The translations under genes were made by a program, and so were the position numbers. Positions 18,686-54,243 of a stretch of DNA of 64,000 nucleotides are shown one piece after another. This stretch comes from Nitrospirae bacterium MYbin3 (GTDB lineage Bacteria; Nitrospirota; Thermodesulfovibrionia; Thermodesulfovibrionales; Dissulfurispiraceae): NCBI GenBank assembly GCA_002753335.1, contig PEAD01000009.1, positions 1 to 64,000 of the forward strand, given 5' to 3'. Position 1 is the stretch's first letter; every line of letters starts with the position of its first letter. The notes beneath the pieces are model-generated. The model made no database searches and was not told the origin of the DNA. It saw only the letters and a program-made list of their open reading frames with translations.

Positions 18686-20662
18686 CTAAAGCCCTACATG
18701 AGGCTTTGCTGCTTTCATTTCACGCCTTGCTGTCATATCCATAAGAACCTTCTCTGTCGTAAACTTGCCCGGCTCGTACTTCTTTAACTTGAGCGCAGCC
18801 CTTGCCTTGTCGATATAATCAAGAGCTGTAGCAAGCATCTTTTCTGGATCCGGTTCAAACACAAAGGCTCCTCTGTATCTCTCAAACCAGACTTCTGTGA
18901 GAATCCTCGTGACCTCTTTAGAAGCCTTAACAGGAGATTCTCCGCCGAATATGACAGGAACACCCGAAGCCGCAAAATAGGCTCCGATCGAGACCGCTTT
19001 TTCGGTAATCCATTCAGGAGCAATACCTACAGCAGGCATTCCTCCAATTTCATCCGAAAGACCGCCTTCTGCAGCCATTGCGGTGGCTATTGTAAGTATC
19101 CTCGTATTGTCAACACAGGCTCCGAGATGCAGAATCGGCGGAATCCCTATAGCTTCGCAAACCTCACGCAGACCGGGGCCTGCATTTTCGAGCGCCATCT
19201 CAGGAGTCAGATACCCTGCGCCGCCGCATGCCGCTGAACTGCAGCCGGTAGAGACGATAAGAACGTCATTCTTTATCAACTCTGTAGCAAGGTATCTGTG
19301 GATACCCGTAGAAGGCCATCTTGGATTGTCGCATCCTGCAAGACCGACCACTCCGCGCACTCTTCCGGCTATAATAGCATCATTCAGTGGCCTGAAAGAG
19401 CCTCTGTACTTGCCGCCCTGCATATATTCTATGTACTCATGTGAGAAGCCGCCGACCATAGTAGATTTTTCGGTTATAAAGCTTCCCTTCTTGGTCCTGT
19501 TCGGGTAGTTGTCGATCGCAAGTCTAACAATCTGACGCGCCTGGTCTTTTGCTATATGCTCGTCAAACGGAATATGAACAGCTCCCGGAATCTTAACCTT
19601 ATCGGATGAAGTTATAATCTTTGTATGGAACTTCTTTGCAACATCCACAATCGCAGGAATAATACACTGAACGTCAACAGTAAACGCATCAATAAGACCG
19701 GTCATGATAGCCGGCTCCTGGTTCGTGAATCCGCCTGCAGTTGCTATGCCATGTCTCATTAGAACTTCGTTTGCGGTGCAGCACATTCCGCCCAAGTTGA
19801 TGCCTTTAGCTCCCTTTGATTTAGCATATTCTATAAGCTCTGGTTCACTTACAGCCTCAACGATCATCTCTGCAAGAGAAGGCTCATGGCCATGAACTAT
19901 TATGTTTACCTCATCCTCTCTGAATATGCCAAGACTCGCCTCGGCCCTTACCGGCATCGGCGTACCAAACAGGATATCGGTGACATCAGTAGATATCATA
20001 CTGCCGCCCCAACCGTTTGCAAGTGAGCAGCGAAGCGCAGCATCCAAAATCGATTCCGGATCAGCGTCCATTCCCATCGTGGTCCTGTCCATTACCTCAG
20101 CTATTTCCCTATCCATTCCTCTAGGAACAATGCCGTACTTCTTCCAGCGGTCCTGAGTTTTCTTCGGAGCGCGTTTAATGAAATTCATCTCTCCCCTCTG
20201 ACGGCCAAAATCCTCAAGAATCTTTGTTGCGACATCCTTAGCAACATCAAGAACAGGCCTGCCTTCAAACTCAATTCCTAAAATGTCGGCAGTTCTGTAA
20301 AGTTTCTTAACATCTTTCACCTGAAAATCTTTTGCATGTCCTTCTGCTACGGCAAGAAGTGTAAATGCCATATCTCTGCCGTGATCGCCGTGGCATGCTG
20401 TTCCTGCAGCAACCATGCGTGCAAAATACCTTGCAGTAACAACAGGCAGCTTGGCTCCGCAAACACCTTTCATGGTGTTCTCTGCATCCTTGCCAACAAG
20501 CCTGCATGGCCCCATGTGACAATTCTTGCAGCAGGCCCCTTCATGTCCGATAGGACAGGGTTTCATCTTATCTGCCCTGTCAAAACAGGTCTCCATATCA
20601 GGCATGCTGTCAATGATTTTTTCTGTACCAGACTGTGCCGTTCTTATTTTTTTCTTTTCCAT
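18686..20662 (-). CDS. cooS: Anaerobic Ni,Fe carbon monoxide dehydrogenase catalytic subunit
   Basis: CPIG..GACCKNCHMGPC, HGHEP, CCTANE, VDVQC, GCDNP, TGC, GACVDN cluster ligands. Confidence 0.96.
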   Translation of the reverse strand: MEKKKIRTAQSGTEKIIDSMPDMETCFDRADKMKPCPIGHEGACCKNCHMGPCRLVGKDAENTMKGVCGAKLPVVTARYFARMVAAGTACHGDHGRDMAFTLLAVAEGHAKDFQVKDVKKLYRTADILGIEFEGRPVLDVAKDVATKILEDFGRQRGEMNFIKRAPKKTQDRWKKYGIVPRGMDREIAEVMDRTTMGMDADPESILDAALRCSLANGWGGSMISTDVTDILFGTPMPVRAEASLGIFREDEVNIIVHGHEPSLAEMIVEAVSEPELIEYAKSKGAKGINLGGMCCTANEVLMRHGIATAGGFTNQEPAIMTGLIDAFTVDVQCIIPAIVDVAKKFHTKIITSSDKVKIPGAVHIPFDEHIAKDQARQIVRLAIDNYPNRTKKGSFITEKSTMVGGFSHEYIEYMQGGKYRGSFRPLNDAIIAGRVRGVVGLAGCDNPRWPSTGIHRYLATELIKNDVLIVSTGCSSAACGGAGYLTPEMALENAGPGLREVCEAIGIPPILHLGACVDNTRILTIATAMAAEGGLSDEIGGMPAVGIAPEWITEKAVSIGAYFAASGVPVIFGGESPVKASKEVTRILTEVWFERYRGAFVFEPDPEKMLATALDYIDKARAALKLKKYEPGKFTTEKVLMDMTARREMKAAKPHVGL

Positions 20663-20687
20663 TTATATTCTCCTCAGTTTGATTTAT

Positions 20688-22886
20688 TTAGATGATAGAC
20701 GGCATTTCCAAGGCCGGATGCCCGACACTTGTAAGATGCTCAAGGAGTTTTTCGGAATCTTCGCAAATCGATTCATCCGCTACCATATCAAGGAGATTAG
20801 GAACTCCGGCCTCTTCCGCCCTCTTCTTGAACTCATCGGCTATCCTTTCCTTCAACCCTTTAGGCATCCAAACCAGTCTTTTTAATCCGCCATCTCCAAA
20901 AAGGAATTTTTTACTGGTAACAAAATTTATGCCTATGCCCATAAACCCGGGGGTCTGTGCGCCGCCACCGACGGTTCCTGCAAGGGTTGAGAATTTCATT
21001 CCGATAGGTGTCATTCCGGTAAATCCTCTGTTGACTATCATGACTCCATTTGCCTCAGGAATGATCGCAAGAATACATTCAAAGCATCCGCATGAGGTCA
21101 TGGGGTTTTCCATGATGGTGTATAGATTCAGAGTCTCTACCGCGCCGCCTGAAGCCTTTTTTAGATACTCGTCAACGCCAGTATAGCGCCCGTATCTGGG
21201 GTCAACCAGCTCGCCTTTAGTAATAGGTTGGTTTCCGCCTGTCGGGTCTATTTCGTATGCGGCTTTTCCGTCAAGCCAGTTATAAGCACCGCACAAACCG
21301 AGCCTCTCGGGTGATATAACACAAACATGAGCAGGTGCAAAAGATTGGCAGAGCAGGCATGAGTAAAAGGTTTCGACAGATTCGTCAGTAAGACTGCCGA
21401 GCCTCTTATCTCTCTCCTTGTAGGCAGCCCTTGCTTCTTCCAGCATCTTATTGACGCTGGCCTCATCCGTGAATATCGTTGTCTGTACTTTATCAACAAT
21501 AGAGCGGAAGCGGTTGTGTGTCAATGTATTCTGTATTATGCCTATGTGCTCCAGGGTAAAGCCGCATATCTTAGCGCCAACGCTGATTCTAACCCAGTTC
21601 TGGTCGCGCTGTCCCATATGCCACACGCCTTGAGCTTCGTTTATATTTGAGTGTATCTTTCTCTCGATGACAGATTCGAAGTCCTTCTGCATCTTTCTTC
21701 CGGCAGCCTCTATAAGGATACCAATAGGCATCTTGCCTCCGGCCGCAAAACGCTCCTGCCACTTATCACCGACAATAATAACTTTATTGTCTTCTATATC
21801 CTCCATTTCACGCATACGAACCCACTCAAAAGCAGGAGTTCTCTGTCCGCCGAACTCGATGAACATATCCTCTTTTCTGATTCTCTCACCTTCAAAGGCA
21901 GGGCCGAAAGCAACAGGGATGTCAGGTCTCTCAACAATAATCTTAAGGCCTCTAACTTCTATCGCCTTCTGAACGATTTTTGTGTGGTCAAATTCTGTAT
22001 CAACCTCTTCATAAGTGCATACGCCGGTAGGGTGAATAACAGGAACATCCGTATCAGCCACGGCCGGGAATCCCATATTTATAGCACCTGCGCCGGTTGC
22101 CCATTTAACATCGTCAAGTGGACCGAGCGCTATTGCAAACGCAAACACTCTGTCTTTCTGGTATTTGAGATGATCTTTGAAATTGGCAGGCTTGATACCG
22201 CCGAAGATTAATGAGGCCCTAATCGCCCAGTCAAGAGCGTAAAGAGTGTGTTCTGTGTCAGGTCCGAGCGGAACAATCCATGAATCCCATCCAAGCTCTA
22301 CTCCCTTTCTCAGAAGCTGTTTTGTAACGCTGTCTCCATTAGACTGGCCAGAGAGGAAGGTAAGTATCTTCTTTTCTTGAAGCTCCCTGACTATGCTGAC
22401 AGCAATATCATCCGACGGGGCTGCTCCCAGTATTGCTGCAAATCCCGGCATTGTACCGTCAACAAGCTGAATACCCAAATTTCTCTGAATAGTATCTGTA
22501 ATGAATCCGTTATAAACATATCCAGTTTCTGGATCTTTGCAGGGTTCAAGACCATAAATATACCTGACCGCAAGAATTATCTCTTCTGCAAACAGTGTTG
22601 CCATGCCTGAATCAAGAGCCTCGCCTAAATAAGGCTTCCAGATTTTTTCATCAGGTTCAGCATGCTGCAGCTCTTTGGCAAAACCGAGAGCAACCTTCAT
22701 GTCACCCAAAGTCTTTACCGGAAATCCGGTCATGGCATAAATCATAGGAAGATAAAACGCCGTGTCCGGAAACTCAAAAACAAAGTCCTTACCCTTTTCG
22801 GCTATAGCCTTTTCGACCATCTCCTCTGCTTGGGCCACAAGTTTGTTTGCCGCCCTTATGGCTGCTGTTGCTATTAACTTGGACAT
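20688..22886 (-). CDS. acsB: Acetyl-CoA synthase
   Basis: CLLCQSFAPAHVC, GLCGA, PMTSCGCFEC A-cluster motifs. Confidence 0.97.
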   Translation of the reverse strand: MSKLIATAAIRAANKLVAQAEEMVEKAIAEKGKDFVFEFPDTAFYLPMIYAMTGFPVKTLGDMKVALGFAKELQHAEPDEKIWKPYLGEALDSGMATLFAEEIILAVRYIYGLEPCKDPETGYVYNGFITDTIQRNLGIQLVDGTMPGFAAILGAAPSDDIAVSIVRELQEKKILTFLSGQSNGDSVTKQLLRKGVELGWDSWIVPLGPDTEHTLYALDWAIRASLIFGGIKPANFKDHLKYQKDRVFAFAIALGPLDDVKWATGAGAINMGFPAVADTDVPVIHPTGVCTYEEVDTEFDHTKIVQKAIEVRGLKIIVERPDIPVAFGPAFEGERIRKEDMFIEFGGQRTPAFEWVRMREMEDIEDNKVIIVGDKWQERFAAGGKMPIGILIEAAGRKMQKDFESVIERKIHSNINEAQGVWHMGQRDQNWVRISVGAKICGFTLEHIGIIQNTLTHNRFRSIVDKVQTTIFTDEASVNKMLEEARAAYKERDKRLGSLTDESVETFYSCLLCQSFAPAHVCVISPERLGLCGAYNWLDGKAAYEIDPTGGNQPITKGELVDPRYGRYTGVDEYLKKASGGAVETLNLYTIMENPMTSCGCFECILAIIPEANGVMIVNRGFTGMTPIGMKFSTLAGTVGGGAQTPGFMGIGINFVTSKKFLFGDGGLKRLVWMPKGLKERIADEFKKRAEEAGVPNLLDMVADESICEDSEKLLEHLTSVGHPALEMPSII

Positions 22887-22924
22887 CTACCCCTCCTGTT
22901 TATGGGATTATAAATTTTTTTAAT

Positions 22925-22952
22925 ATACTACAACGCTTCAGTATTCTGTCAA
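22925..22952 (-). promoter_or_regulatory. Putative internal promoter for acsB-cooS
   Basis: Minus-strand TTGACA-16nt-TAGTAT upstream of the AGGAGG RBS of acsB. Confidence 0.55.
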
Positions 22953-22972
22953 GCAATTTGTTTTTTGGGCTT

Positions 22973-23007
22973 TGCGAGCGCCCTCATTTACACAGAGGGC
23001 GCTCGCA
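22973..23007. other. GC-rich 13-bp stem-loop after acsC (terminator-like or mRNA-stabilising)
   Basis: TGCGAGCGCCCTC-9nt-GAGGGCGCTCGCA; no U-tract in the direction of transcription. Confidence 0.65.
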
Positions 23008-23015
23008 GATAAACT

Positions 23016-24353
23016 CTATCTGGACTTAAGAAATGCAGGCAGAGCGTTTGCCTCTCTAGGGCCCACAGTAACTTTCCACCCTGGAAGTTTCTCCTCGATG
23101 GCTCCGCTCATTATTGCAACATATCCGGGTATTATAAGCTCCCTGTGCTTTATCTCGTTCTCGATGCCGCTGTCTTTAAGGAACTGTGCAATCTTGGAAG
23201 CAGTAAACTTTCCCGCAGCCCAAGCCGTAAGAACCGACAATCCTTCGGAATCCATTACAGCAAGCCTGCACGGAACCTTGCTGTTCTCAATTTCACCCGA
23301 CACTATAAAATATGTGAGCGAGAAGTTGGTCGTAATCATAAGAGGAGAATCCGCCGTAGGCTCTCCAATCTTGTATATCTTCTGCTCCACCTGCATAGGC
23401 ACCTGCGGGTCGGTATAGATATTCTGCCTGACGGTAAATAGCGCCAAGCTTTTCCATTTTTCAACACTGCTGAGAACAACGATAGAAGAATACTTGGCAA
23501 CACACGCCACAGCAATAAGCGTCTCGAGCATTACATCGTCTCTCTGCGCAAAGGTTATAACCGGATATCCCAAAGGTTTGAAATTCTTTTTTATCGCGGC
23601 CCTTCTGATCAGCGTATTTTCGTTAATTATTTCTTTCGCTGTTTTTGCGCCAGGATCTATCACCATATCTTCAACGCCCAAACCCTTGATCTTTTCGGTA
23701 AGAGCAGACAGCGCCTCAAGGCCTTTTGCGCTGACTCCAAGAGCTATCTTGTTTGCCTTTGCTATGCCTGCCATAGCTTCGGCATTAGAGCCGTTTGCCC
23801 CGAAGAGCAGCGGCTTCCTGTCCGCAACAGCCTTTACAGCCGCTTCAGCATTCTGTGCATTCTCTGTGCCAAGAATTATAGCCGCAGATGGAGCCTTTGC
23901 TGCCACTGTTTTTGCCGCAGCCTCAAATTTTGAGGCATCATTGGAAGCGTTGCTTATAAATATGGCATCAATCCTGAGTTTCTGACCAACCCTGTCCATT
24001 TCGGATGAGTTGACATCATCGCAAATCTTGTTAATGTCAGCTTCGGACATGGTGTCTTTGACTTCAACAGCAAAGGCGCACGGATTAACGAATTTCTTTT
24101 CATGCCTGAAAAGTACGGTCTCTTCGCCCATCTTGACAGACTTGTCGCCTGTGCCGAGAGTAATCGGTCTTACCGGAGGAGCGGAAGCCTCGCCTAAAAC
24201 CTTCTTGGCATCTTCAGAAACATCCGGGCACGCGTCAAGCGATGCCTGCCTCTGCGCCAGCTTCATAGCAAAGGCAAGACAGGTTGGATGCCCGCATTTT
24301 TTGCAGTTTGTTTTTGGAAGCAGTTTAAATATTTCAACGCCGGTTAAAGCCAT
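23016..24353 (-). CDS. acsC: Corrinoid iron-sulfur protein large subunit
   Basis: LPKTNCKKCGHPTCLAFA..CP, ETVLFRHEK, SVLTAWAA, GPRE. Confidence 0.96.
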   Translation of the reverse strand: MALTGVEIFKLLPKTNCKKCGHPTCLAFAMKLAQRQASLDACPDVSEDAKKVLGEASAPPVRPITLGTGDKSVKMGEETVLFRHEKKFVNPCAFAVEVKDTMSEADINKICDDVNSSEMDRVGQKLRIDAIFISNASNDASKFEAAAKTVAAKAPSAAIILGTENAQNAEAAVKAVADRKPLLFGANGSNAEAMAGIAKANKIALGVSAKGLEALSALTEKIKGLGVEDMVIDPGAKTAKEIINENTLIRRAAIKKNFKPLGYPVITFAQRDDVMLETLIAVACVAKYSSIVVLSSVEKWKSLALFTVRQNIYTDPQVPMQVEQKIYKIGEPTADSPLMITTNFSLTYFIVSGEIENSKVPCRLAVMDSEGLSVLTAWAAGKFTASKIAQFLKDSGIENEIKHRELIIPGYVAIMSGAIEEKLPGWKVTVGPREANALPAFLKSR

Positions 24354-24366
24354 GATCTAACCCTCC

Positions 24367-25305
24367 TTAATTTAACTCGTCTATGAATTTTTGGACTGCC
24401 TTGACAGCCTCGGGATGTCTCATTATGAGAAGCTCTGCACCAGAAACCATAAGACTTCCTGCCGTAACCACTTCCCATGTTATGCCCCTCTGCTCAACAT
24501 TGCCCCATGCAGGAACATCCGCCTCGGCCGCCTGAGTCTCTTTGACTTTCCAGACATACATGCCTACATCGGCCAGTATGGGCGGTTGCATAGTAGCATC
24601 ATTTTGTGTTAATGCCGCAAGCCTTATTCTCTCCATAACTGAGTAGGTATATTCCAACCCGTACCCCAAAGCAGAGCACATAGGGTCGGTTACCAGCCTC
24701 TCCTTGTCAAACCCCATCTGGGTTATAAGAATGTTAAGCTGCTTGGAAAGATTGATATCGAGTTCGGACATCGCTATCAATTTATGATTGTTTGCCATTG
24801 CGGCTGCCGCAATCGTTTTGTAGTTGGCCTCCTGCGCCTTTCCGATCACGCAGTTCTTGTCCTTTGCTGCCTCTGCTGCCGCCACCAACACAACAGAATC
24901 CTTTTCAGCATTATTGCTGCCAAGTATTATAAGAGGAACATTGATAGCCGCAAGAACTTCTTTCACCGTTTTGGCCGCATCTTCTGCTGAACGGTTCTCT
25001 CTGTCAGGATGTGTGCCTACAAGTCTGAGAGCAATAGCCTGAGCATTAAGCTCGTTCTGGCAATATTTTGCCCAAGTTACAGGATCTCCTGACACATTTT
25101 CATAGGCCTTCCTGACCGTATCCGGCCAGTCTGTAGGCGGAACATCCTGAATTTCGTATGCTATCACCGGCTTATTAGGATAGTTGCCGTCAACCGTTAA
25201 AAAAGGAAGGGCGTTCTCTCCGCCGAAAACAGCGGTCTTATCAGACCCTATGGTTAACTGATAGACCTTTCCTGCAAAAGATTCTTTAGGTTCAACAAAA
25301 GCCAT
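24367..25305 (-). CDS. acsD: Corrinoid iron-sulfur protein small subunit
   Basis: GGENALPF, DINLSKQLN, LGYGLEYTYSVMERIR, MRHP. Confidence 0.96.
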   Translation of the reverse strand: MAFVEPKESFAGKVYQLTIGSDKTAVFGGENALPFLTVDGNYPNKPVIAYEIQDVPPTDWPDTVRKAYENVSGDPVTWAKYCQNELNAQAIALRLVGTHPDRENRSAEDAAKTVKEVLAAINVPLIILGSNNAEKDSVVLVAAAEAAKDKNCVIGKAQEANYKTIAAAAMANNHKLIAMSELDINLSKQLNILITQMGFDKERLVTDPMCSALGYGLEYTYSVMERIRLAALTQNDATMQPPILADVGMYVWKVKETQAAEADVPAWGNVEQRGITWEVVTAGSLMVSGAELLIMRHPEAVKAVQKFIDELN

Positions 25306-25341
25306 TTTCTACCTCCGTTTTTCAGCTATATAAGCCGTTAT

Positions 25342-26199
25342 TTACATTTCAAGATATGAGTGAGCGTACAACGTTTTGTTCATAAAGATATCCATAGTCT
25401 TTTTTATCTCGGTCATCTTGGCAGCATCAGATATAGTCTTACCTGACAAGACGTCATCTATAATTTTTTTCTCCTGCATAGCTTCGGCCATCTCATGTGC
25501 GTCAGCGATTGCGGAAGAAAGCCCTGCATCCATAAGCATGACAAAATAATATTTATTCAGAATAGGCCTTAACGTCTTTGGACATCCATTCGATATATTG
25601 CTTAACCCGACAACGGTTTTCATTGCTGGGTCGTTCATCTCCTGAAACATCTTTATGGCCTTCACTACATGCAAAGCATGGTCTTGTGATGTAGCCACCT
25701 GAAGAACAAGCGGGTCGAGATACAAATCTTCAAGAGGAATGCCGAATTCCATGGCGCGTCCCATGATCTCGGCAGCTATTCCAGCTCTTTCTTCTGCGTC
25801 GGCAGGCAATCCGCCTTTGCCTACAGTAAGTCCGATTATCTGTGCATTGTATTTCGCAGCAATCTCCATCATAGGAAAACGCTCAGGATCATTAGAAGTT
25901 GAATTTATGAGCGGCCGCCCCCACTGGTTATTGTGAACCTTAAGACCTGCCTCTACCGCACTAAAATTAGTTGTGTCGAGACAAACAGGAAGCGGAACAA
26001 CTTCCTGGATGGTGGTCACCATCCACTGCATCAAATCCTCTCCGCCATCTTCGGCAGGGCCGATATTGGCATCGATCATGCCCGAGCCCTCTTTCCACTG
26101 ACGGGTTGCTATCTCCTGAATAGGGCCCTTGTCCTTCTTCAACATAGCCTCTCTGACCCTCTTGGCTATGATGCTGAGCTTCTCACCGATTATGAGCAT
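25342..26199 (-). CDS. acsE: Methyltetrahydrofolate:corrinoid Fe-S protein methyltransferase
   Basis: Pterin-binding fold (LIIGEK, CLDTTN, INS, DPL, GLSNISNG) in acs context; start set to the second ATG by RBS spacing. Confidence 0.92.
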   Translation of the reverse strand: MLIIGEKLSIIAKRVREAMLKKDKGPIQEIATRQWKEGSGMIDANIGPAEDGGEDLMQWMVTTIQEVVPLPVCLDTTNFSAVEAGLKVHNNQWGRPLINSTSNDPERFPMMEIAAKYNAQIIGLTVGKGGLPADAEERAGIAAEIMGRAMEFGIPLEDLYLDPLVLQVATSQDHALHVVKAIKMFQEMNDPAMKTVVGLSNISNGCPKTLRPILNKYYFVMLMDAGLSSAIADAHEMAEAMQEKKIIDDVLSGKTISDAAKMTEIKKTMDIFMNKTLYAHSYLEM

Positions 26200-26226
26200 A
26201 CACATTCCCCCTTATAAGTTTTACTA

Positions 26227-45926: not shown

Positions 45927-47368
45927 CCCAGATTTGTCATTAGAGATGTGAAGGGAAATGTGCAGGCAGGTCAAAAGACATAGACTTGCCCCATGATCCC
46001 TCAAACCATTGCCGTCTTTTCATAGCCATACAGAGCTTCAAAATGCGTTTGTTTCCCTCTTTGATTACGTATCCGCCATTTGCAAAAATCTTGTACCGCA
46101 TTGTTTTCAGCGTTGGCTGTACTTTTCCGCATACAACCACCTGCCTGAATAAGCTCATGAGATTATAGGCAAGCATGACACAATTCATGGCAGCCTCAGT
46201 AGCGCTGAAACCGTTCACATTGAAGCTGTCTGCGCCGAAATCATATTTCAGTTCCTTGATACGATTCTCAGCATCGGCCCTCATCCGGTAAAGCTTCCAC
46301 ACTAAATGTGCAGGAAGTTCAAGGCTTGTCACAAAACAGCCATATCTGTAATTGCTGATTTCAACATCTTCGGCAAATAGCTTCAGCATTTTCCCTGTTG
46401 CCTTAGGCCTTCTTTCAATCCTTTGCCTTACCATCACCATTCTACGTTTCTTATCCCAGCCATAGGACTCAAAGTTAACTGATGCCACCTCTATGCGTCT
46501 TCAACTTCAAACCACTCCCCATGCCGTGCAAGCATTCGCTGTATTGGCGCATGAAGCCTTGCAGCTATTATATAGGGTATTGGCCGCTCTTGCTTTTCAA
46601 GATACTCAAGTATTGATGTCTGGCAAAAACCACTGTCCGCCCTTAGTAGTCCTATCGTCTTTCCTGCAAGGTTGTTTAGCGTGTCTTGTAGAAACCCCTC
46701 AAAGTTATTTGCTGTGTGTGCATCTCCGGAGCGTAGCCAGAAGTTTGCCACCATTTTACAATCAGCCACAAATGCAAGCAAAGGATGATGTGAGTTTCTT
46801 CCTGGCTTGTGAGGATTGTACCCGCGCCGTGCTCCTTCCTGCTGGCCGTATCTGCTGATTACCGTTGAATCCAAATCCAGTGTGAAGTTGTCAAAATGCA
46901 ACTGCTCAAAAAACCAGTTGTATATTCCATGAAATACCGTTGAAAGGCTTTGTGCCCTGCCATTGTCTTGCAATCAAATATCTTACGTATCACCTCATCA
47001 TGTCGGGTGACTTCCATATGCTCAAATCTGTTAGCACCACACCACACGCTTACTAAAAATTGCTCTATAAGTTGCTCCGGGGGATACCCTCGATTGGAGC
47101 CCTGCTTAGGCAAATCCACTTCCCCTAATGCCTCACGAAATCCTATCTTTTGCAGCATGCGGCTCATAAGGGCCATGCCTCCCCATGGGGTTATCTCTTT
47201 GTCGCTGAAGCTCAGTTGAAGGTCTTTTGCCATGTATGATTTCCTTACACGTATTTTGACTTCATTTGCGTTAGACGCTTCACAATATCTTATAGCCTTT
47301 TCAATATGTTATCAATCACAACCCCTAATGGCGGTCATTAGAAATTATCCACTAACGACTTTTCTGGG
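45927..47368 (-). mobile_element. IS1380-family insertion sequence, 1442 bp, with imperfect TIRs and 5-bp TSD
   Basis: Ends CCCAGATTTGTCATTAG and (revcomp) CCCAGAAAAGTCGTTAG; TTAAA duplicated at 45922-45926 and 47369-47373; DDE transposase inside. Confidence 0.88.
45940..47233 (-). pseudogene. IS1380-family transposase broken by two frameshifts
   Basis: Three consecutive fragments: ITPWGG..., TLDLDST..GYNP..HHPL..RADSGF, and YRMRADAENRIKELK; breaks near 46930 and 46495. Confidence 0.88.
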
Positions 47369-47786: not shown

Positions 47787-50078
47787 TTAATTTATCTTAG
47801 CTACCGGCATTTTCAACCGACTATTAGCCGCATCGGAGAAAGGAAACAGAACTGGAGTCTGGTCTCTATTAAGATCGAGCGAGGCCTTATCAGAAACATT
47901 TGTTTTTACATAGTCATAAAGTTCGCCAAGTTCAATAATGCCGTTTCCATCTTTATCGGCCTCCCCTCTCATGCCCCTTAAAAGATAGTATGTGAACAGG
48001 CCGTGCTTGACACTTTCATAATCAGAGCTAATCTGGCTTCCGGTTGAGGCTGCGATTACGTTTAGCTTTCCATTTTCAAGCGCATGATTTTCTATGGACA
48101 GTATCAATGGTCTCGAGCCCACCTTGGTTACACTTCTGCTTCCAGCGCCTGAAAAACAACTATCGAGCATTACAACCACATTTTTAGCAGGAAGTTTGTT
48201 AAGCGACTCGTACATTCTTTTTAATGGATACAGTTTAGACGGGAAATCAGGATGTCCTTCGTAGGGGACTATGTATGCTTCTTTACTCTCTGCATCAGGT
48301 GTGCCATGACCTGCATAATATATGAAAACAGTAGAATCTTTGCTGATTCGCCTTGGGAGCCAGTCTTCTATATAGGCTTCAAGATCGCTTTTTGTAACAG
48401 ATGTATCTGTTAATAATTTAATGTTATCTCTAGGAATACCGCCCACATTTTCGAGATATTTTGCTACAACTTCGGCGTCCCTGCTTGCATACTTGACAGC
48501 AGGAATGACTTCCTCACGATATTTACTGATTCCGATTACTAGGGCGAATGACTCTTTCCTGATAAAGTTCTTTGTCTTCAATGGAATGTCATCTACATTA
48601 ACCTCTGAAATTATCTCAACAGATTCCTTTATCTCTTTAGGTCGCATTGCGACTTTTAATATTTTTACATCTGAAGACAGATTCTCCGCAGTATCTTTTA
48701 GTTCTATTCTCAGCATTGCTGACTCTGATGGAATTCGGGCGGGCAAGACCGTTTTAAATTCAGCTGTCTTCTTTTCACCAGGTTTGATGTCTCCTACAAA
48801 TTTTTTTTCGCCGAGGTACTCGATAAGTTTTTTATTGCCTGACAAGACAACCTGAAGATCTTTTGCTGAACCTTCTCCTTTATTCTCAATAACCACTCTT
48901 AGAGAAACCTCTTCACCACCATCAAGAACACGGTTATTATTCTGGTCTTTTAATTGTGTTGAAAATACAAGACGTGGGATCTCTGATATAACTTCAACTG
49001 TCTCCTTAGTTTCGGCTCGTCTTGTAGCAATCTTTAGTGTTTTGATATCAGGAAGAGAGAATCCTTGGGCCTCTTTTATTTCAACTTTTATGTCTATCTC
49101 ACCTGAAGGTGTCTGTGGAGGCAAAACAGCTTTATATTCAGCCGTCTTTTTCTCTCCGGGTTTTATATCTCCAATAGACTTTCTTTCACCAAAATAACCA
49201 ACAAGCATTGGGTTTCCAGACAGTATAATCTGAACGTCCTTAGCCGCTCCTTCGCCTTTATTTTCAACCTCTACTCTCAGAGCAGCCACTTCTCCGCCTT
49301 CAAGTATCCGGTTGCCGGATGCTTCGGTGAAAACAATATTTGCAGAGAGAGACGGCTGCAGAAGCTTAGGAGATTCAACTGCAGTTTGAGCAGTTTCAAT
49401 TTTCTGCGGCTCATTGATAATTTTAGAATCCACAGCTGCCAATTGTTTATCCTTAATACTCCCTTCACTTAATTTGACAAGTTGGTATCCGCTGCCGCCT
49501 CCAAAACCGGTGCCAACTACTTTGATAGAATAATGGGCACCCAGCACCTTATTGTCTAAATCTATGTAATCTATAAGCCATTCTGTAGGACTCCCCCATG
49601 GTGCAATTAACATTGTCCCAAATGCCGAATAATTCACCCTAATCTCTGTCAATGACTTTATAGACAAAATCCCGTCGGTCGTAGAAGTATAAAGAGGAAC
49701 TGCAAGCCAAGTCTGTTTATCCCATACCTTGAATTTAATCTCCATATTTTCACGGTCGATATAGAGTATATCTGTAAACCTTACAGAAGTCCTGGTCGCC
49801 ATGCCTGGTAACGGTCCACCCTGAACAAAATACCCGATGCCCTTATTCTCAAAGGTTCTTTTTTCAGGACTGGACTTAAATAATTCATTATCCTTATCTT
49901 CAGAACCTTTTAGGAGATTAAATATTTTGACCAGCAGTTCTTCCTTTGAATCAGCATCCGTCAGATATCTGCATCGTTGATTTTCGCAAAGCGTAAGATG
50001 CTCTACCTTCACATTTTCAAGAGAAGCGCAGCCGGAAAGAAATGCAAACATCAATAATAAGATGAGGACTTTCGTCAT
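47787..50078 (-). CDS. Caspase-family (C14) lipoprotein with duplicated CARDB/Ig-like domains
   Basis: Lipobox LSGC; two ~127-aa repeats (NR.L.GGE...ENKGEG.AKD...GDIKPGEKKTAE); YYAGHG and LDSCFSG dyad. Confidence 0.88.
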   Translation of the reverse strand: MTKVLILLLMFAFLSGCASLENVKVEHLTLCENQRCRYLTDADSKEELLVKIFNLLKGSEDKDNELFKSSPEKRTFENKGIGYFVQGGPLPGMATRTSVRFTDILYIDRENMEIKFKVWDKQTWLAVPLYTSTTDGILSIKSLTEIRVNYSAFGTMLIAPWGSPTEWLIDYIDLDNKVLGAHYSIKVVGTGFGGGSGYQLVKLSEGSIKDKQLAAVDSKIINEPQKIETAQTAVESPKLLQPSLSANIVFTEASGNRILEGGEVAALRVEVENKGEGAAKDVQIILSGNPMLVGYFGERKSIGDIKPGEKKTAEYKAVLPPQTPSGEIDIKVEIKEAQGFSLPDIKTLKIATRRAETKETVEVISEIPRLVFSTQLKDQNNNRVLDGGEEVSLRVVIENKGEGSAKDLQVVLSGNKKLIEYLGEKKFVGDIKPGEKKTAEFKTVLPARIPSESAMLRIELKDTAENLSSDVKILKVAMRPKEIKESVEIISEVNVDDIPLKTKNFIRKESFALVIGISKYREEVIPAVKYASRDAEVVAKYLENVGGIPRDNIKLLTDTSVTKSDLEAYIEDWLPRRISKDSTVFIYYAGHGTPDAESKEAYIVPYEGHPDFPSKLYPLKRMYESLNKLPAKNVVVMLDSCFSGAGSRSVTKVGSRPLILSIENHALENGKLNVIAASTGSQISSDYESVKHGLFTYYLLRGMRGEADKDGNGIIELGELYDYVKTNVSDKASLDLNRDQTPVLFPFSDAANSRLKMPVAKIN

Positions 50079-50216: not shown

Positions 50217-51323
50217 TCATTCCTGTTTAAGAAGCGACTCAAGGGGTTTGTGTCCGAATGTGTTTCTTTTTGACTGAACTGACACCCATTGACGTAATTT
50301 GTTCATAGCCATACCGCTTTTTATTGCATCTCGTGATAGCTGAACTCCATCTTTAATGCTGTCGCATTTTCCGGCCACATATAAAATAGCGCCTGCGTTC
50401 AGGCTAACAAAATCTACACATGCTTCATGCCCATTACCGGATAGCACCGAAAGAAACTTTTTAGATTCCTTCTTGATGCTTCCAGAAAAAGCGATCTCAG
50501 AAAACTTGAAGGTCTTGATTCCTGCATTTTCAGGCACAAAAGAGTAATTTTTTACCTTGTCTTCAGAAAATTCATAAATAATGGTTTCACCGCACGGTGA
50601 GATCTCGTCCATGCCCAACCCTGAATCACTATCAATGCCATAAACAACCATTCCTTTTTTGTATCCGATTTTCTGCATAACCTCAACTACGCTTTGCATA
50701 ATAGAATCAGCGTAAACTCCACGCAGCCCAAGCGTTGGGCGTGCGGGATTTGCAAGGGAGGCGGCAATGTTCAAGGTAGAGCCGAAGCGTATCTGGCTCA
50801 GTATCCTGCCGAGCGCTCCAGGATGGACATTCGAGCTCATGCCATTAAACAGGCCAATGCCAACTTCTTTAATGCTGTTCTCAACAACACTGACTTCACA
50901 TTCAACATCGACCCCCACTGATTCAAGCATATCCACTGTGCCGCATTTCGAAGTAAGCGCTCTTGCGCCATGCCTTGCCATAGGAACACCGCATGCAGCG
51001 GCTACTATTGCTGATGCGCTGCTGACATTAAAGGTCTTTAATTTGTCCATGCCTGTGCCGGAGTTATCAAATAGTCCAGATGGAAGATCGCCGTTTGTGT
51101 GAATCGTATCAATCTCATCAATGGCCTTCCATGCCCCAACTATCTCATCTACGGTCTCCCCTTTGGCTGCAAGCGCAGCAAGAAAAGCACCCTGCTGAAG
51201 ATCAGGCTGGACATTCTCAAGCACCTGCTTGAACATATGGTATGTTTCTTCGCCGCTTAAATCTTCCCCTTGTATGAGTCTTTGAACCCCCCGACCAAAA
51301 TCAGCAATTGCAGTTGTGTTCAT
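50217..51323 (-). CDS. Divergent anthranilate phosphoribosyltransferase (TrpD)-like protein
   Basis: GAFLAALAAKGET..EI.G, DNSGTGMD..TFNVSS, RHGA, GMDEIS, NAGA; no trp genes nearby. Confidence 0.85.
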   Translation of the reverse strand: MNTTAIADFGRGVQRLIQGEDLSGEETYHMFKQVLENVQPDLQQGAFLAALAAKGETVDEIVGAWKAIDEIDTIHTNGDLPSGLFDNSGTGMDKLKTFNVSSASAIVAAACGVPMARHGARALTSKCGTVDMLESVGVDVECEVSVVENSIKEVGIGLFNGMSSNVHPGALGRILSQIRFGSTLNIAASLANPARPTLGLRGVYADSIMQSVVEVMQKIGYKKGMVVYGIDSDSGLGMDEISPCGETIIYEFSEDKVKNYSFVPENAGIKTFKFSEIAFSGSIKKESKKFLSVLSGNGHEACVDFVSLNAGAILYVAGKCDSIKDGVQLSRDAIKSGMAMNKLRQWVSVQSKRNTFGHKPLESLLKQE

Positions 51324-51342
51324 CTTTTTCTCCTGTATGAAA

Positions 51343-52308
51343 TTATGGGTAAAGCAGTATTTTCATGCCTTCGCGGCGTTCTACCAAACAAAGGGCTGCT
51401 TCAAGCTCGGCAAGCGGCATTTTATGAGAGATCATATCTTTTACCTCCACTTGCCCTGCAGCTATCATTTTTAGGGCCGTAACCCCGTGGCGGTAACTGC
51501 ATCCATACGCCCCAACTATGGTCTGTTCAACATAATGCAGGTGATTGAAGTCCACTAAGATCGATGAATCGTTTTTCGCAAGGCCAGAAAAGACAACAAG
51601 CTTGCCACGAGGACCAAGCCCTCCGATAGCCTCAAGGTAAGCATCTTTGTCTCCAACCGCAACAAACGCTGCATCAAGATCATTGCAATTAAGTTTTTCA
51701 TGTCCCTCGGCAACAAGTCTTCTGCGCAGGTCTTTCTCTATAATTACAGTTTTTGCTCCAAGAGCTTTTGACGCACGACTTAATAGGGTACCTGCTGGTC
51801 CTGCTCCCCATATGCCGACCTTATCACCTTCTTTTATAGCTGCAAGCTCTATGGCATTCAGACAACATGAAAGAGGCTCTGTAAGGATGGCTTCATCATC
51901 CGAAATCTCAGGTGGGACAATATTCAGACTTTGAAGAGGTGCAACTACGTATTCTGCGAATCCCCCATCGCGATGGAAACCCATGATCTTCATGCTAATA
52001 CAAAGGTTGCCTGCTCCATTTTTGCATTGCTTGCATGCTCCGCAGCTTATTCCCGGATAGATGTAAACCCTTTGTCCTATCTTAATATCCGAAGTTTCAC
52101 TGCCAAGTGCCACCACCGTTCCTATGACCTCTTCCCCCGGCACTCTTGGAAGAGTCAAGTCTCTATGCCCAACCCTGATAATTTTAAGGTCAGTTCTGCA
52201 AAGCCCTGTCACCGTGACTTTAACAAGAGCCTCACCTATTGCCGGAGTGGGCATGGCAATATTCCCATAGATAAATGAACCAATGTTCTCAATCCAGACA
52301 GCTTTCAA
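51343..52308 (-). CDS. Zinc-dependent medium-chain dehydrogenase (threonine/iditol dehydrogenase-like)
   Basis: GLCRTD, CGACKQC..C structural Zn, EPLSC, GAGPAG; TTG start 52308 after GGAGG (the ORF-track extension runs into the attenuator). Confidence 0.88.
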   Translation of the reverse strand: MKAVWIENIGSFIYGNIAMPTPAIGEALVKVTVTGLCRTDLKIIRVGHRDLTLPRVPGEEVIGTVVALGSETSDIKIGQRVYIYPGISCGACKQCKNGAGNLCISMKIMGFHRDGGFAEYVVAPLQSLNIVPPEISDDEAILTEPLSCCLNAIELAAIKEGDKVGIWGAGPAGTLLSRASKALGAKTVIIEKDLRRRLVAEGHEKLNCNDLDAAFVAVGDKDAYLEAIGGLGPRGKLVVFSGLAKNDSSILVDFNHLHYVEQTIVGAYGCSYRHGVTALKMIAAGQVEVKDMISHKMPLAELEAALCLVERREGMKILLYP

Positions 52309-52320
52309 CTGTTCACCTCC

Positions 52321-52369
52321 AAATAAAAAAAGAGGTCCAATGGAAGGTATGCTTCCACAGGACCTCTTT
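52321..52369 (-). terminator. Riboswitch-associated intrinsic terminator (attenuator)
   Basis: AAAGAGGTCC..TGGAAG-CATAC-CTTCCA..GGACCTCTTT followed by a U-tract, directly before the RBS. Confidence 0.85.
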
Positions 52370-52394
52370 ACCATCGAGTGTCGTATTTATGCTT

Positions 52395-52551
52395 GTCTCA
52401 GCACGTCTTCTGGCTCTCGGGTCAACCACTTTCGACTGCGCCTTCCCAGCAGATTGATTTCTGCCAGTGGCCTCTATAGTAGAGCAGTCAGTGTACCGAT
52501 TACAGCGGCGGGACCGCCACGGATTTAAACCGTGTTCCGTATTGCTAAGAC
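52395..52551 (-). ncRNA. Cobalamin riboswitch aptamer
   Basis: Minus strand: ATACGGAA-CACGG-TTTAAAT-CCGTG-GCGGTCCCGCCGCTGTAA ... GCCACTG ... GGGAAGG ... AGCCAGAAGACGTGC; closing stem GTCTTAGCA/TGCTGAGAC. Confidence 0.93.
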
Positions 52552-52557
52552 GGTTTA

Positions 52558-52586
52558 ATTATATGAATAGAAAAAAGTTATGTCAA
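52558..52586 (-). promoter_or_regulatory. Consensus sigma70 promoter driving the riboswitch leader
   Basis: TTGACA-17nt-TATAAT with predicted +1 at the 5' end of the aptamer. Confidence 0.85.
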
Positions 52587-53622: not shown

Positions 53623-54243
53623 ATGAACGAAACATGTTGCAGAGAGTTAAAGGTAGGTCAGGTCGTCCCGGAGTTCAAGATTGAAGCATATGACCCGTTA
53701 AAAGGAGATTTCAGGGAAATAAGCAGCGAATCTCTTAAAGCAAGCGGAAAATGGATCATACTTTTCTTTTTCCCTGCAGCATTCACCTTTGTCTGAGCTA
53801 CGGAATTTGCTGCTCTGGGAGAGCAGTATGACAGATTCAAAAAGATGGGGGCCGAAGTAATTACTGTAAGCACCGATACAAAGTATGTTCAGCTTGCGTG
53901 GCAACGGGAAGAGAAAATGCTAAAGGATGTCAAATATCCTATGGGCTCTGATCCATCAGGTAAGCTTTCAAAGCTGTTCGGCGTGTATGATGAGGAAAAA
54001 GGGCTTGATTTGAGAGGGACTTTTATAATCAGTCCGGCAGGCATAATATTAAATGCCGAGGTCAACTTTTACAACATGGGCAGAAATATCGAGGAGCTCA
54101 TGAGAAAATTCAAAGCAAATCTGCATATGTCAAAAAAGACTCACGAAGTCTGCCCATCCAAATGGAAGGAAGAGGGGGACCAAACCCTTTCTCCAACTCC
54201 CCAGATGGCAGGGAAAGTGCACGAGGCCCTCGAAAAGAAATAA
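53623..54243 (+). CDS. Selenocysteine-containing peroxiredoxin (AhpC/Prx1-like; PrxU type)
   Basis: AGGAGG RBS, ATG 53623; in-frame TGA 53794-53796 at the peroxidatic position (FTFV-U-ATE); continues in frame to resolving EVCP; 206 aa. Confidence 0.92.
53808..53828 (+). promoter_or_regulatory. Bacterial SECIS-like hairpin
   Basis: TGCTGCTCT-GGG-AGAGCAGTA stem-loop starting 11 nt after the UGA, G-rich apical loop. Confidence 0.75.

Follow-up and report, generated by a model that had tools for sequence, protein, structure and literature searches.

Why should a cobalamin riboswitch precede a dehydrogenase and a relative of the tryptophan enzyme TrpD? The question is posed by a stretch of 64,000 nucleotides from Nitrospirae bacterium MYbin3 (positions 1 to 64,000 of contig PEAD01000009.1, assembly GCA_002753335.1; hereafter the window), in which a riboswitch leads two adjacent genes for an MDR-family zinc-dependent dehydrogenase (MDR) and a TrpD-like phosphoribosyltransferase. 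Our tentative answer, to which we grant somewhat less than an even chance, is that this cassette forms a B12-linked two-enzyme accessory module acting just upstream of CobT, where it would convert a scavenged precursor into a benzimidazole-type lower base. That the cassette is linked to the CobT step at all is very probable, while the odds that it supplies CobT sequentially with a lower base seem to us evenly balanced.

All elements of the cassette lie on the minus strand. Its sigma-70-type promoter (TTGACA-17-TATAAT, 52558..52586) matches the consensus at 12 of 12 positions and is the sole such site among eight promoter-like sites between 49 and 54 kb, a class that as a whole is not enriched (8 against 9.8 in shuffled sequences). 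The aptamer of the cobalamin riboswitch (RF00174, 52383..52587) scores 85.6 bits against a gathering cut-off of 31.5 (E 1.1e-19) and is the only Rfam match in the window. The Rfam alignment extends across the promoter, and in a fold of the leader from around 52552 the closing stem P1 pairs 52551-52544 with 52402-52395. In that fold, which offers no clear antiterminator, the closing stem of the aptamer and the terminator form together. The predicted intrinsic terminator, the putative expression platform (52325..52369, fold z -3.34), comprises a long hairpin at 52369-52329, not reported by a simple terminator scan, and a run of seven U at 52331-52325, and sits between the aptamer and a Shine-Dalgarno sequence, GGAGG (52316..52320). 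The latter lies 7 nt ahead of a TTG codon at 52308, which is most likely the start of the MDR (321 aa, 51343..52308; domain and profile searches), since the GGAGG precedes it and the alignments of homologues begin there. An upstream ATG at 52374 was rejected as a start, being placed inside the hairpin, with homologues aligning from the TTG instead. The TrpD-fold phosphoribosyltransferase paralogue (368 aa, 50217..51323; profile search, fold, alignment and tree) follows in the same direction after 19 nt. The scans, that of the Rfam cobalamin models included, thus bear out an earlier reading made from the sequence only, which had described a promoter, cobalamin riboswitch and attenuator ahead of two genes 19 nt apart; its "divergent TrpD-like operon" is apt for the divergence of the sequence and wrong for the orientation of the genes.

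The cassette is neither restricted to this bacterium nor common among its kin. The TrpD-like protein has at least 120 clusters of relatives at 58% identity or above, and the named ones come from Nitrospirota, Desulfobacterota, Syntrophales, Desulfitobacteriaceae, Formimonas, Syntrophoarchaeum and Methanomassiliicoccaceae. The spread of the gene is patchy: it occurs in 2 of 301 genomes of the host phylum, 14 of 301 of the phylum of genome G301, 11 of 61 of the bacterial family of G587 and 43 of 81 of the archaeal order of G302. An MDR gene adjoins it in 83 of 89 loci, and in five of the other six the sequence ends within 270 nt of the gene. One genome (G499) retains both the TrpD-like gene and an MDR fused to CobT, far apart from each other; in another (G329) no MDR was found, and the contig stops just upstream of the TrpD-like gene. 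Moreover, pairwise identity in the one protein tracks that in the other (Spearman 0.78 over 69 loci, the pairs not being independent).

The surroundings of the pair point to the assembly of the cobamide nucleotide loop. An Rfam scan of 60 of about 100 loci with their flanks, some of them near-duplicates, showed the pair to be preceded by a cobalamin riboswitch, at no more than 400 nt, in 34. Gene neighbourhoods include riboswitch-MDR-TrpD-like-cobT-cobS (L119, L121), MDR-TrpD-like-cobT-cbiB-cobD (L081), a cbi operon followed by riboswitch, pair, cbiZ and btuBFCD (L115), the pair directly followed by cobU (L153), the pair between cobD and cobQ (L035), and bluB directly before the pair on the opposite strand (L050). 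In a fusion-type layout, riboswitch and TrpD-like gene are followed by a small open reading frame (ORF) and MDR::CobT. The sequence-only reading had proposed that homologues be examined for such links to B12 loci, and these are found: conserved riboswitches, cob neighbours, the MDR::CobT fusion and co-occurrence with cobT and cobS, together with the B12 repression of a like-annotated pair in Dehalococcoides, give strong support to a role in nucleotide-loop metabolism. As separate observations, the BluB of L050 (5841-6593) scores above its cut-off and stands within an anaerobic cbi cluster, and seven loci of the fusion-type clade carry, directly after the TrpD-like gene, a conserved protein of about 70 aa without known family (for example L118:6128-6400, L120:8086-8379 and L006:9655-9963), which is absent from the host.

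The fusion ties the MDR to CobT most directly. The fused protein, found in sulfate reducers, scores above the CobT cut-off; it is widespread, PF08240 being listed together with PF02277 for 119 of the 120 clusters that scored best, and the CobT-fused MDRs form a single clade in the MDR tree. In three genomes (G303, G453 and G499) the fused CobT coexists with a separate cobT that neighbours a bzaF-like gene, an arrangement consistent with a CobT dedicated to capturing the acceptor. The motifs GEMGI(G/A)N, H-x-S and R-L-G-E-G, which we take to be the nicotinate mononucleotide (NaMN)/nicotinate and catalytic sites, are retained in the fused CobT, so that its donor is probably still NaMN; nadC was present in the five carriers tested. 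Separately, the CobT copies of L128 and L143, beside bzaF-like genes, and that of L141 form a clade of their own with QARP/QIRP replacing KTKP/LTKP, possibly a 5-hydroxybenzimidazole-specific type of CobT.

Carriers of the cassette also keep the enzymes that it would feed. CobT is present in 11 of 11 carriers of the bacterial family and in 42 of 43 of the archaeal order, where CobS accompanies all 43, and the pair occurs in none of the 11 archaeal genomes that are devoid of CobS. Among CobS-positive genomes of this order, CobT is missing from one of 43 carriers and from one of 27 non-carriers. The genomes compared are all related to one another, and the archaeal distribution probably mirrors a split between families, so that the Fisher values computed for it exaggerate the association. 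In the bacterial family a bzaF-like gene occurs in 2 of 11 carriers, one of them the genome that supplied the query, as against 41 of 50 non-carriers, again kin and not independent; two carriers gave no ThiC-family match, and in several no known base synthase was found.

Expression data come from a proxy. Table S1 of PMC3986231, with three arrays each at low and high B12, lists for D. mccartyi 195 a 5.5-fold increase at low B12 of DET0125 ("alcohol dehydrogenase, zinc-containing") and a 7.3-fold increase of DET0126 ("anthranilate phosphoribosyltransferase", a second "trpD"), with the housekeeping trpD, DET1483, at 0.73-fold. For spent ANAS medium, we compute from rows of the same supplement a decrease of 11.6-fold for DET0126 and of 5.8-fold for cobT, and the nearby DET0128 is a cobyrinate diamide synthase (PMC5102406). 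By analogy with this pair, the cassette is likely repressed by B12. The sequence-only reading had allowed that expression might ignore cobalamin; a response is seen in the one organism with data, through a pair of presumed orthologues. Dehalococcoides is described as remodelling cobamides only when supplied with a lower base (PMC11321594), and this need, if the genes are orthologous, favours salvage and disfavours synthesis from central metabolites alone.

In the host genome, whose assembly is 93.7% complete, the cassette appears as an addition to a nucleotide-loop pathway that is complete elsewhere. The only other cobalamin riboswitch leads an operon on contig C46 (G000:C46:20001-31750; L001, L138) with a bzaF-like gene, cobU-T-S-C-Q, cbiB, cobD and further cbi-like genes. 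CobU, CobT, CobQ, CbiB and CobD score above their cut-offs, and CobS and CobC just below. The ThiC paralogue heading this operon was read as bzaF, there being a separate thiC on C63.

What, then, would the two enzymes do? The TrpD-like protein scores 263 bits against TIGR01245 (cut-off 199), and its AlphaFold model, with a predicted local distance difference test score of 90, matches anthranilate phosphoribosyltransferase (AnPRT) structures in Foldseek at TM 0.80-0.86. In a tree, 30 cassette-type rows separate from six canonical TrpD rows, one of them a long branch, with an SH-aLRT of 100. Conservation was read from an alignment of 92 sequences, with residue roles taken from PMC9835598 (N117, S119, K135, N138, R193, D251, E252 and the GTGGD loop of the Mycobacterium tuberculosis enzyme) and the numbering transferred by motif through canonical paralogues. 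Residues for phosphoribosyl pyrophosphate (PRPP) and Mg, N99 and S101 (N-x-S), D239 and E240, are kept in all 92; the lysine at the K135 position of the PRPP site is arginine in 86, and GTGGD has become GTGMD in 89. The anthranilate side is altered: the N138 position is Ala or Ser in all 92, Leu175 of the TrpD-like protein occupies the R193 position, and KHGN has become RHGA and GP has become AS. These features suggest that the enzyme probably performs N-phosphoribosyl transfer with inversion onto another acceptor than that of TrpD. Beside this clade, L122, L123 and L124 hold more divergent sister lineages (GTGAD/GTGSD; KKGA in L123 and L124), whose substrate may be another one; an MDR is paired with the gene in L123 and L124, and L123 also has a cobalamin riboswitch.

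The MDR is likewise a distinct member of its family. An alignment of 76 sequences shows, besides the ADH_N domain, the structural zinc cysteines C89, C92, C95 and C103 and the Rossmann glycines G168 and G170 in all 76, with C37, E60, E144 and a GHRDL motif near-invariant. The histidine of the GHE motif, a ligand of the catalytic zinc, is Glu in 63 of 76, the host protein included. The subfamily signature is C-x-T-D-x-K...GHRDL, with GHRDL and FSG/HYxE as private motifs, and an acidic residue near the Rossmann GxGxxG suggests NAD as the cofactor. The nearest solved structures are an uncharacterised zinc-dehydrogenase (PDB 4EJ6, the closest), threonine dehydrogenases, RspB and polyol dehydrogenases, and no equivalog cut-off among the profile models searched is reached.

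The retention of CobT and its duplication onto the MDR, the NaMN motifs together with nadC, and the lost carboxylate clamp make TrpD-like, MDR, CobT the simplest order of action. In the proposed scheme, the TrpD-like enzyme would move ribose-5-phosphate from PRPP onto an aniline-type nitrogen, as TrpD natively does. The likeliest acceptor, in our estimate, is an ortho-diaminobenzene, for instance 4,5-dimethyl-1,2-phenylenediamine, that is, anthranilate with an amine for the carboxylate; this choice, in itself doubtful, is favoured since each enzyme would then use its native chemistry. The second amine would close on the ribose C1', and the NAD-dependent MDR would oxidise the intermediate, turning C1' into C2 of the benzimidazole with loss of a four-carbon phosphate; this would parallel, without O2, the latter half of the BluB reaction. 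CobT, free or fused, would finally make the alpha-ribotide from NaMN for CobS. The bolder formulation, an oxygen-independent two-enzyme benzimidazole synthase constituting a third lower-base route beside BluB and Bza, is a speculative one to which we give modest odds.

Several points weigh against base supply by the cassette. Anoxic habitats are not known to contain an established pool of o-diaminobenzenes. The precedent for a C2 derived from a ribose carbon is a nonenzymatic cascade of diamine and ribose-phosphate, reportedly described by Maggio-Hall in 2003. In the TrpD-like clade, all 92 sequences share R173, which lies two residues away from the site of the missing R193 equivalent, and N160, S163 and Q177 are newly near-invariant; such residues would favour a polar or anionic acceptor over an uncharged diamine. 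The pair coexists with known base-synthesis genes: with bzaF-like alone in the host, in the cob operon, with bzaF-C-D-E-like clusters in G274 (BzaD above the cut-off) and G446 (just below), and with an adjacent BluB gene in L050; this co-occurrence, or the finding of none, indicates that the cassette is not tied to one base structure. The fusion arose once and so counts as a single piece of evidence, and the tree gives no clear common origin for all cassette MDRs (92/94, on long branches). No riboswitch lies within 400 nt upstream in 26 of the 60 loci scanned; among these 26 are archaeal loci, loci within cob operons, loci on short contigs and some without an explanation. Finally, we infer the orthology of DET0125/0126 from annotation, order and regulation.

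Of the alternatives, the one that survives best, though we consider it unlikely, dispenses with CobT: the TrpD-like enzyme would trap a benzimidazole as its beta-ribotide via PRPP, and the MDR would epimerise C1' by way of a 2'-keto intermediate, yielding the alpha-ribotide that CobS uses. Being base-agnostic, this route matches the presence of the pair with BzaF-like, BzaF-C-D-E-like, BluB or none of them, and fits the CobS of every archaeal carrier; an irreversible PRPP trap would be useful at the subpicomolar to subnanomolar levels of free benzimidazoles reported for the environment in PMC4230183. However, carriers show no excess loss of CobT (the bacterial family has none among its 11), and three genomes even own the extra fused copy, findings that weaken the notion, raised by the sequence-only reading, of a beta-ribotide being inverted by the pair in place of CobT. 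Moreover, we know of no MDR epimerase.

Base recycling, which seems to us improbable, would have the MDR oxidise alpha-ribazole or a loop fragment released by CbiZ, freeing the base for CobT, while the TrpD-like enzyme would work in reverse on beta-ribotides and so release base that had been mis-ribosylated. It accounts for the fusion, it agrees with cbiZ and btuB directly following the pair in L115, L147 and L149-L151, and alpha-ribazole is presented as a shared intermediate in PMC4230183. However, unrelated substrates for the two enzymes leave their near-obligate pairing unexplained, the cbiZ context is confined to one clade, and the usual salvage of alpha-ribazole is attributed to the kinase CblS (PMC6461909).

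A third possibility, poorly placed in our view, is that CobT receives its beta-ribotide donor from the TrpD-like enzyme, either NaMN from released nicotinate or an MDR-oxidised analogue, a double inversion leading to the alpha product. The stereochemistry is simple and independent of the base, the invariant R173 could bind a carboxylate, and a nicotinate phosphoribosyltransferase (PF04095) was found in neither G000 nor G587. Against this, that enzyme occurs in G499 and G303, and as a weak match in G274 (three of the five carriers tested), nadC is present in five of five, and the MDR is left without a clear role.

Synthesis of aminopropanol or another linker precursor by a threonine-dehydrogenase-like MDR was an option of the sequence-only reading that now looks very unlikely: L-threonine 3-dehydrogenase is among the nearest curated models and the pair of L035 sits between cobD and cobQ, but the scores are far below the equivalog cut-offs (129.5 against 458 and 132.7 against 380 bits), cobD and cbiB of the host are above theirs, the fusion partner is CobT, and the PRPP enzyme would have no use. 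The same reading had also considered a B12-independent bypass of a B12-dependent reaction, outside cofactor assembly, as PMC545781 describes for nrdDG in deltaproteobacteria; the cassette does stand alone in the host, but the CobT fusion, the positions within cob operons, the cobD and cbiB of the host and the absence of the pair from CobS-less archaea make this hardly credible. Weakest of all, a genuine second AnPRT for tryptophan synthesis, suggested by the TIGR01245 score, the fold and one of the five genomes tested (G305), where the cassette gene is the sole TrpD-family match, can be practically dismissed given the separate clade, the loss of anthranilate residues, the higher-scoring TIGR01245 copy in the other four and, in answer to whether the host has any other trpD, a canonical one (C1:204876-205886, 31.6% identical) close behind trpE- and trpG-like genes, these two named from N-terminal sequences.

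How does the cassette compare with what is known? With TrpD (EC 2.4.2.18; TIGR01245; PDB 9UCW, 1ZYK, 1ZVW) the phosphoribosyltransferase shares the fold, the PRPP/Mg residues and probably the N-phosphoribosyl transfer; it differs in its replaced acceptor residues, its own clade and a riboswitch/cob context rather than a trp operon. The MDR shares with polyol and threonine dehydrogenases (TDH, RspB, GatD, sorbitol dehydrogenase) the Cys4 structural zinc, the presumed catalytic Cys/Glu/Glu and GxGxxG, and departs from them in its sub-cut-off scores, private motifs, His-to-Glu change and, in one clade, fusion to CobT. The anaerobic bza modules (bzaAB or bzaF, cobT, bzaC-E; PMC6461909) are likewise riboswitch-led, cobT-tied suppliers of lower base in anaerobes, but the cassette has no gene for a ThiC-like radical-SAM enzyme or methyltransferase, occurs with or without bza and, if the Dehalococcoides pair is orthologous, is found in a base auxotroph. 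BluB, the 5,6-dimethylbenzimidazole synthase, shares the proposed origin of the benzimidazole C2 from a ribose/ribityl carbon; it is a flavin- and O2-dependent enzyme of nitroreductase fold, whereas the cassette would use a phosphoribosyltransferase and an NAD-dependent MDR without oxygen. The CblT/CblS salvage of alpha-ribazole and ArsAB are further accessory means of providing or activating the lower ligand, with different folds, and CblS bypasses CobT, which carriers of the cassette keep. Among the NCBIfam and Pfam matches of the two proteins there is none to the BzaA-F, BluB, CobT/Ars or CblS families. The cassette would seem to fall outside every described lower-ligand module, with a putatively new chemistry within a familiar type of pathway, and a literature search, beyond whose reach lay subscription papers and bioRxiv supplements, found no functional description of it.

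The matter is of some consequence, as 42% of predicted cobamide producers have no known lower-ligand gene according to Shelton et al. (PMC6461909). Lower-base supply sets the cobamide of an anaerobe and hence the cross-feeding in dechlorinating, methanogenic and sulfate-reducing communities. A benzimidazole synthase, if this is what the pair is, would occur in sulfate reducers, Nitrospirota, methanogens and Dehalococcoides alike, would explain the supply of lower base in anaerobes without a known synthase and, given orthology, would offer a role for a strongly B12-responsive Dehalococcoides operon. The genes are annotated as trpD and alcohol dehydrogenase, and metabolic models consequently assign them to tryptophan and energy metabolism (Table S7 of PMC3986231 is an example). 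Both are small soluble enzymes and can be assayed.

The window holds other features of note. Directly downstream of the cassette and outside it, a protein of 763 aa (47787-50078, minus strand) that resembles a lipoprotein and has CARDB repeats and a caspase domain does not recur among the neighbour clusters of related loci, and three overlapping ORFs (45940-47233, minus strand) resemble, by the appearance of their sequence, pieces of one frameshifted transposase. A cluster for carbon monoxide dehydrogenase, AcsB, AcsC, AcsD and an AcsE-like protein (18686-26205, minus strand) belongs to the Wood-Ljungdahl pathway and implies a demand for corrinoids; of the AcsC, AcsD and AcsE named earlier, the first two exceed their NCBIfam cut-offs, and the AcsE-like protein falls short (236 against 370 and 228 against 259). 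Finally, a peroxiredoxin-like ORF (53623-54243, plus strand) has an in-frame TGA at codon 58 (FTFV-U-ATE), presumably at the position of the peroxidatic cysteine of FTFVCPTE, and is a probable selenoprotein split by plain ORF calling.

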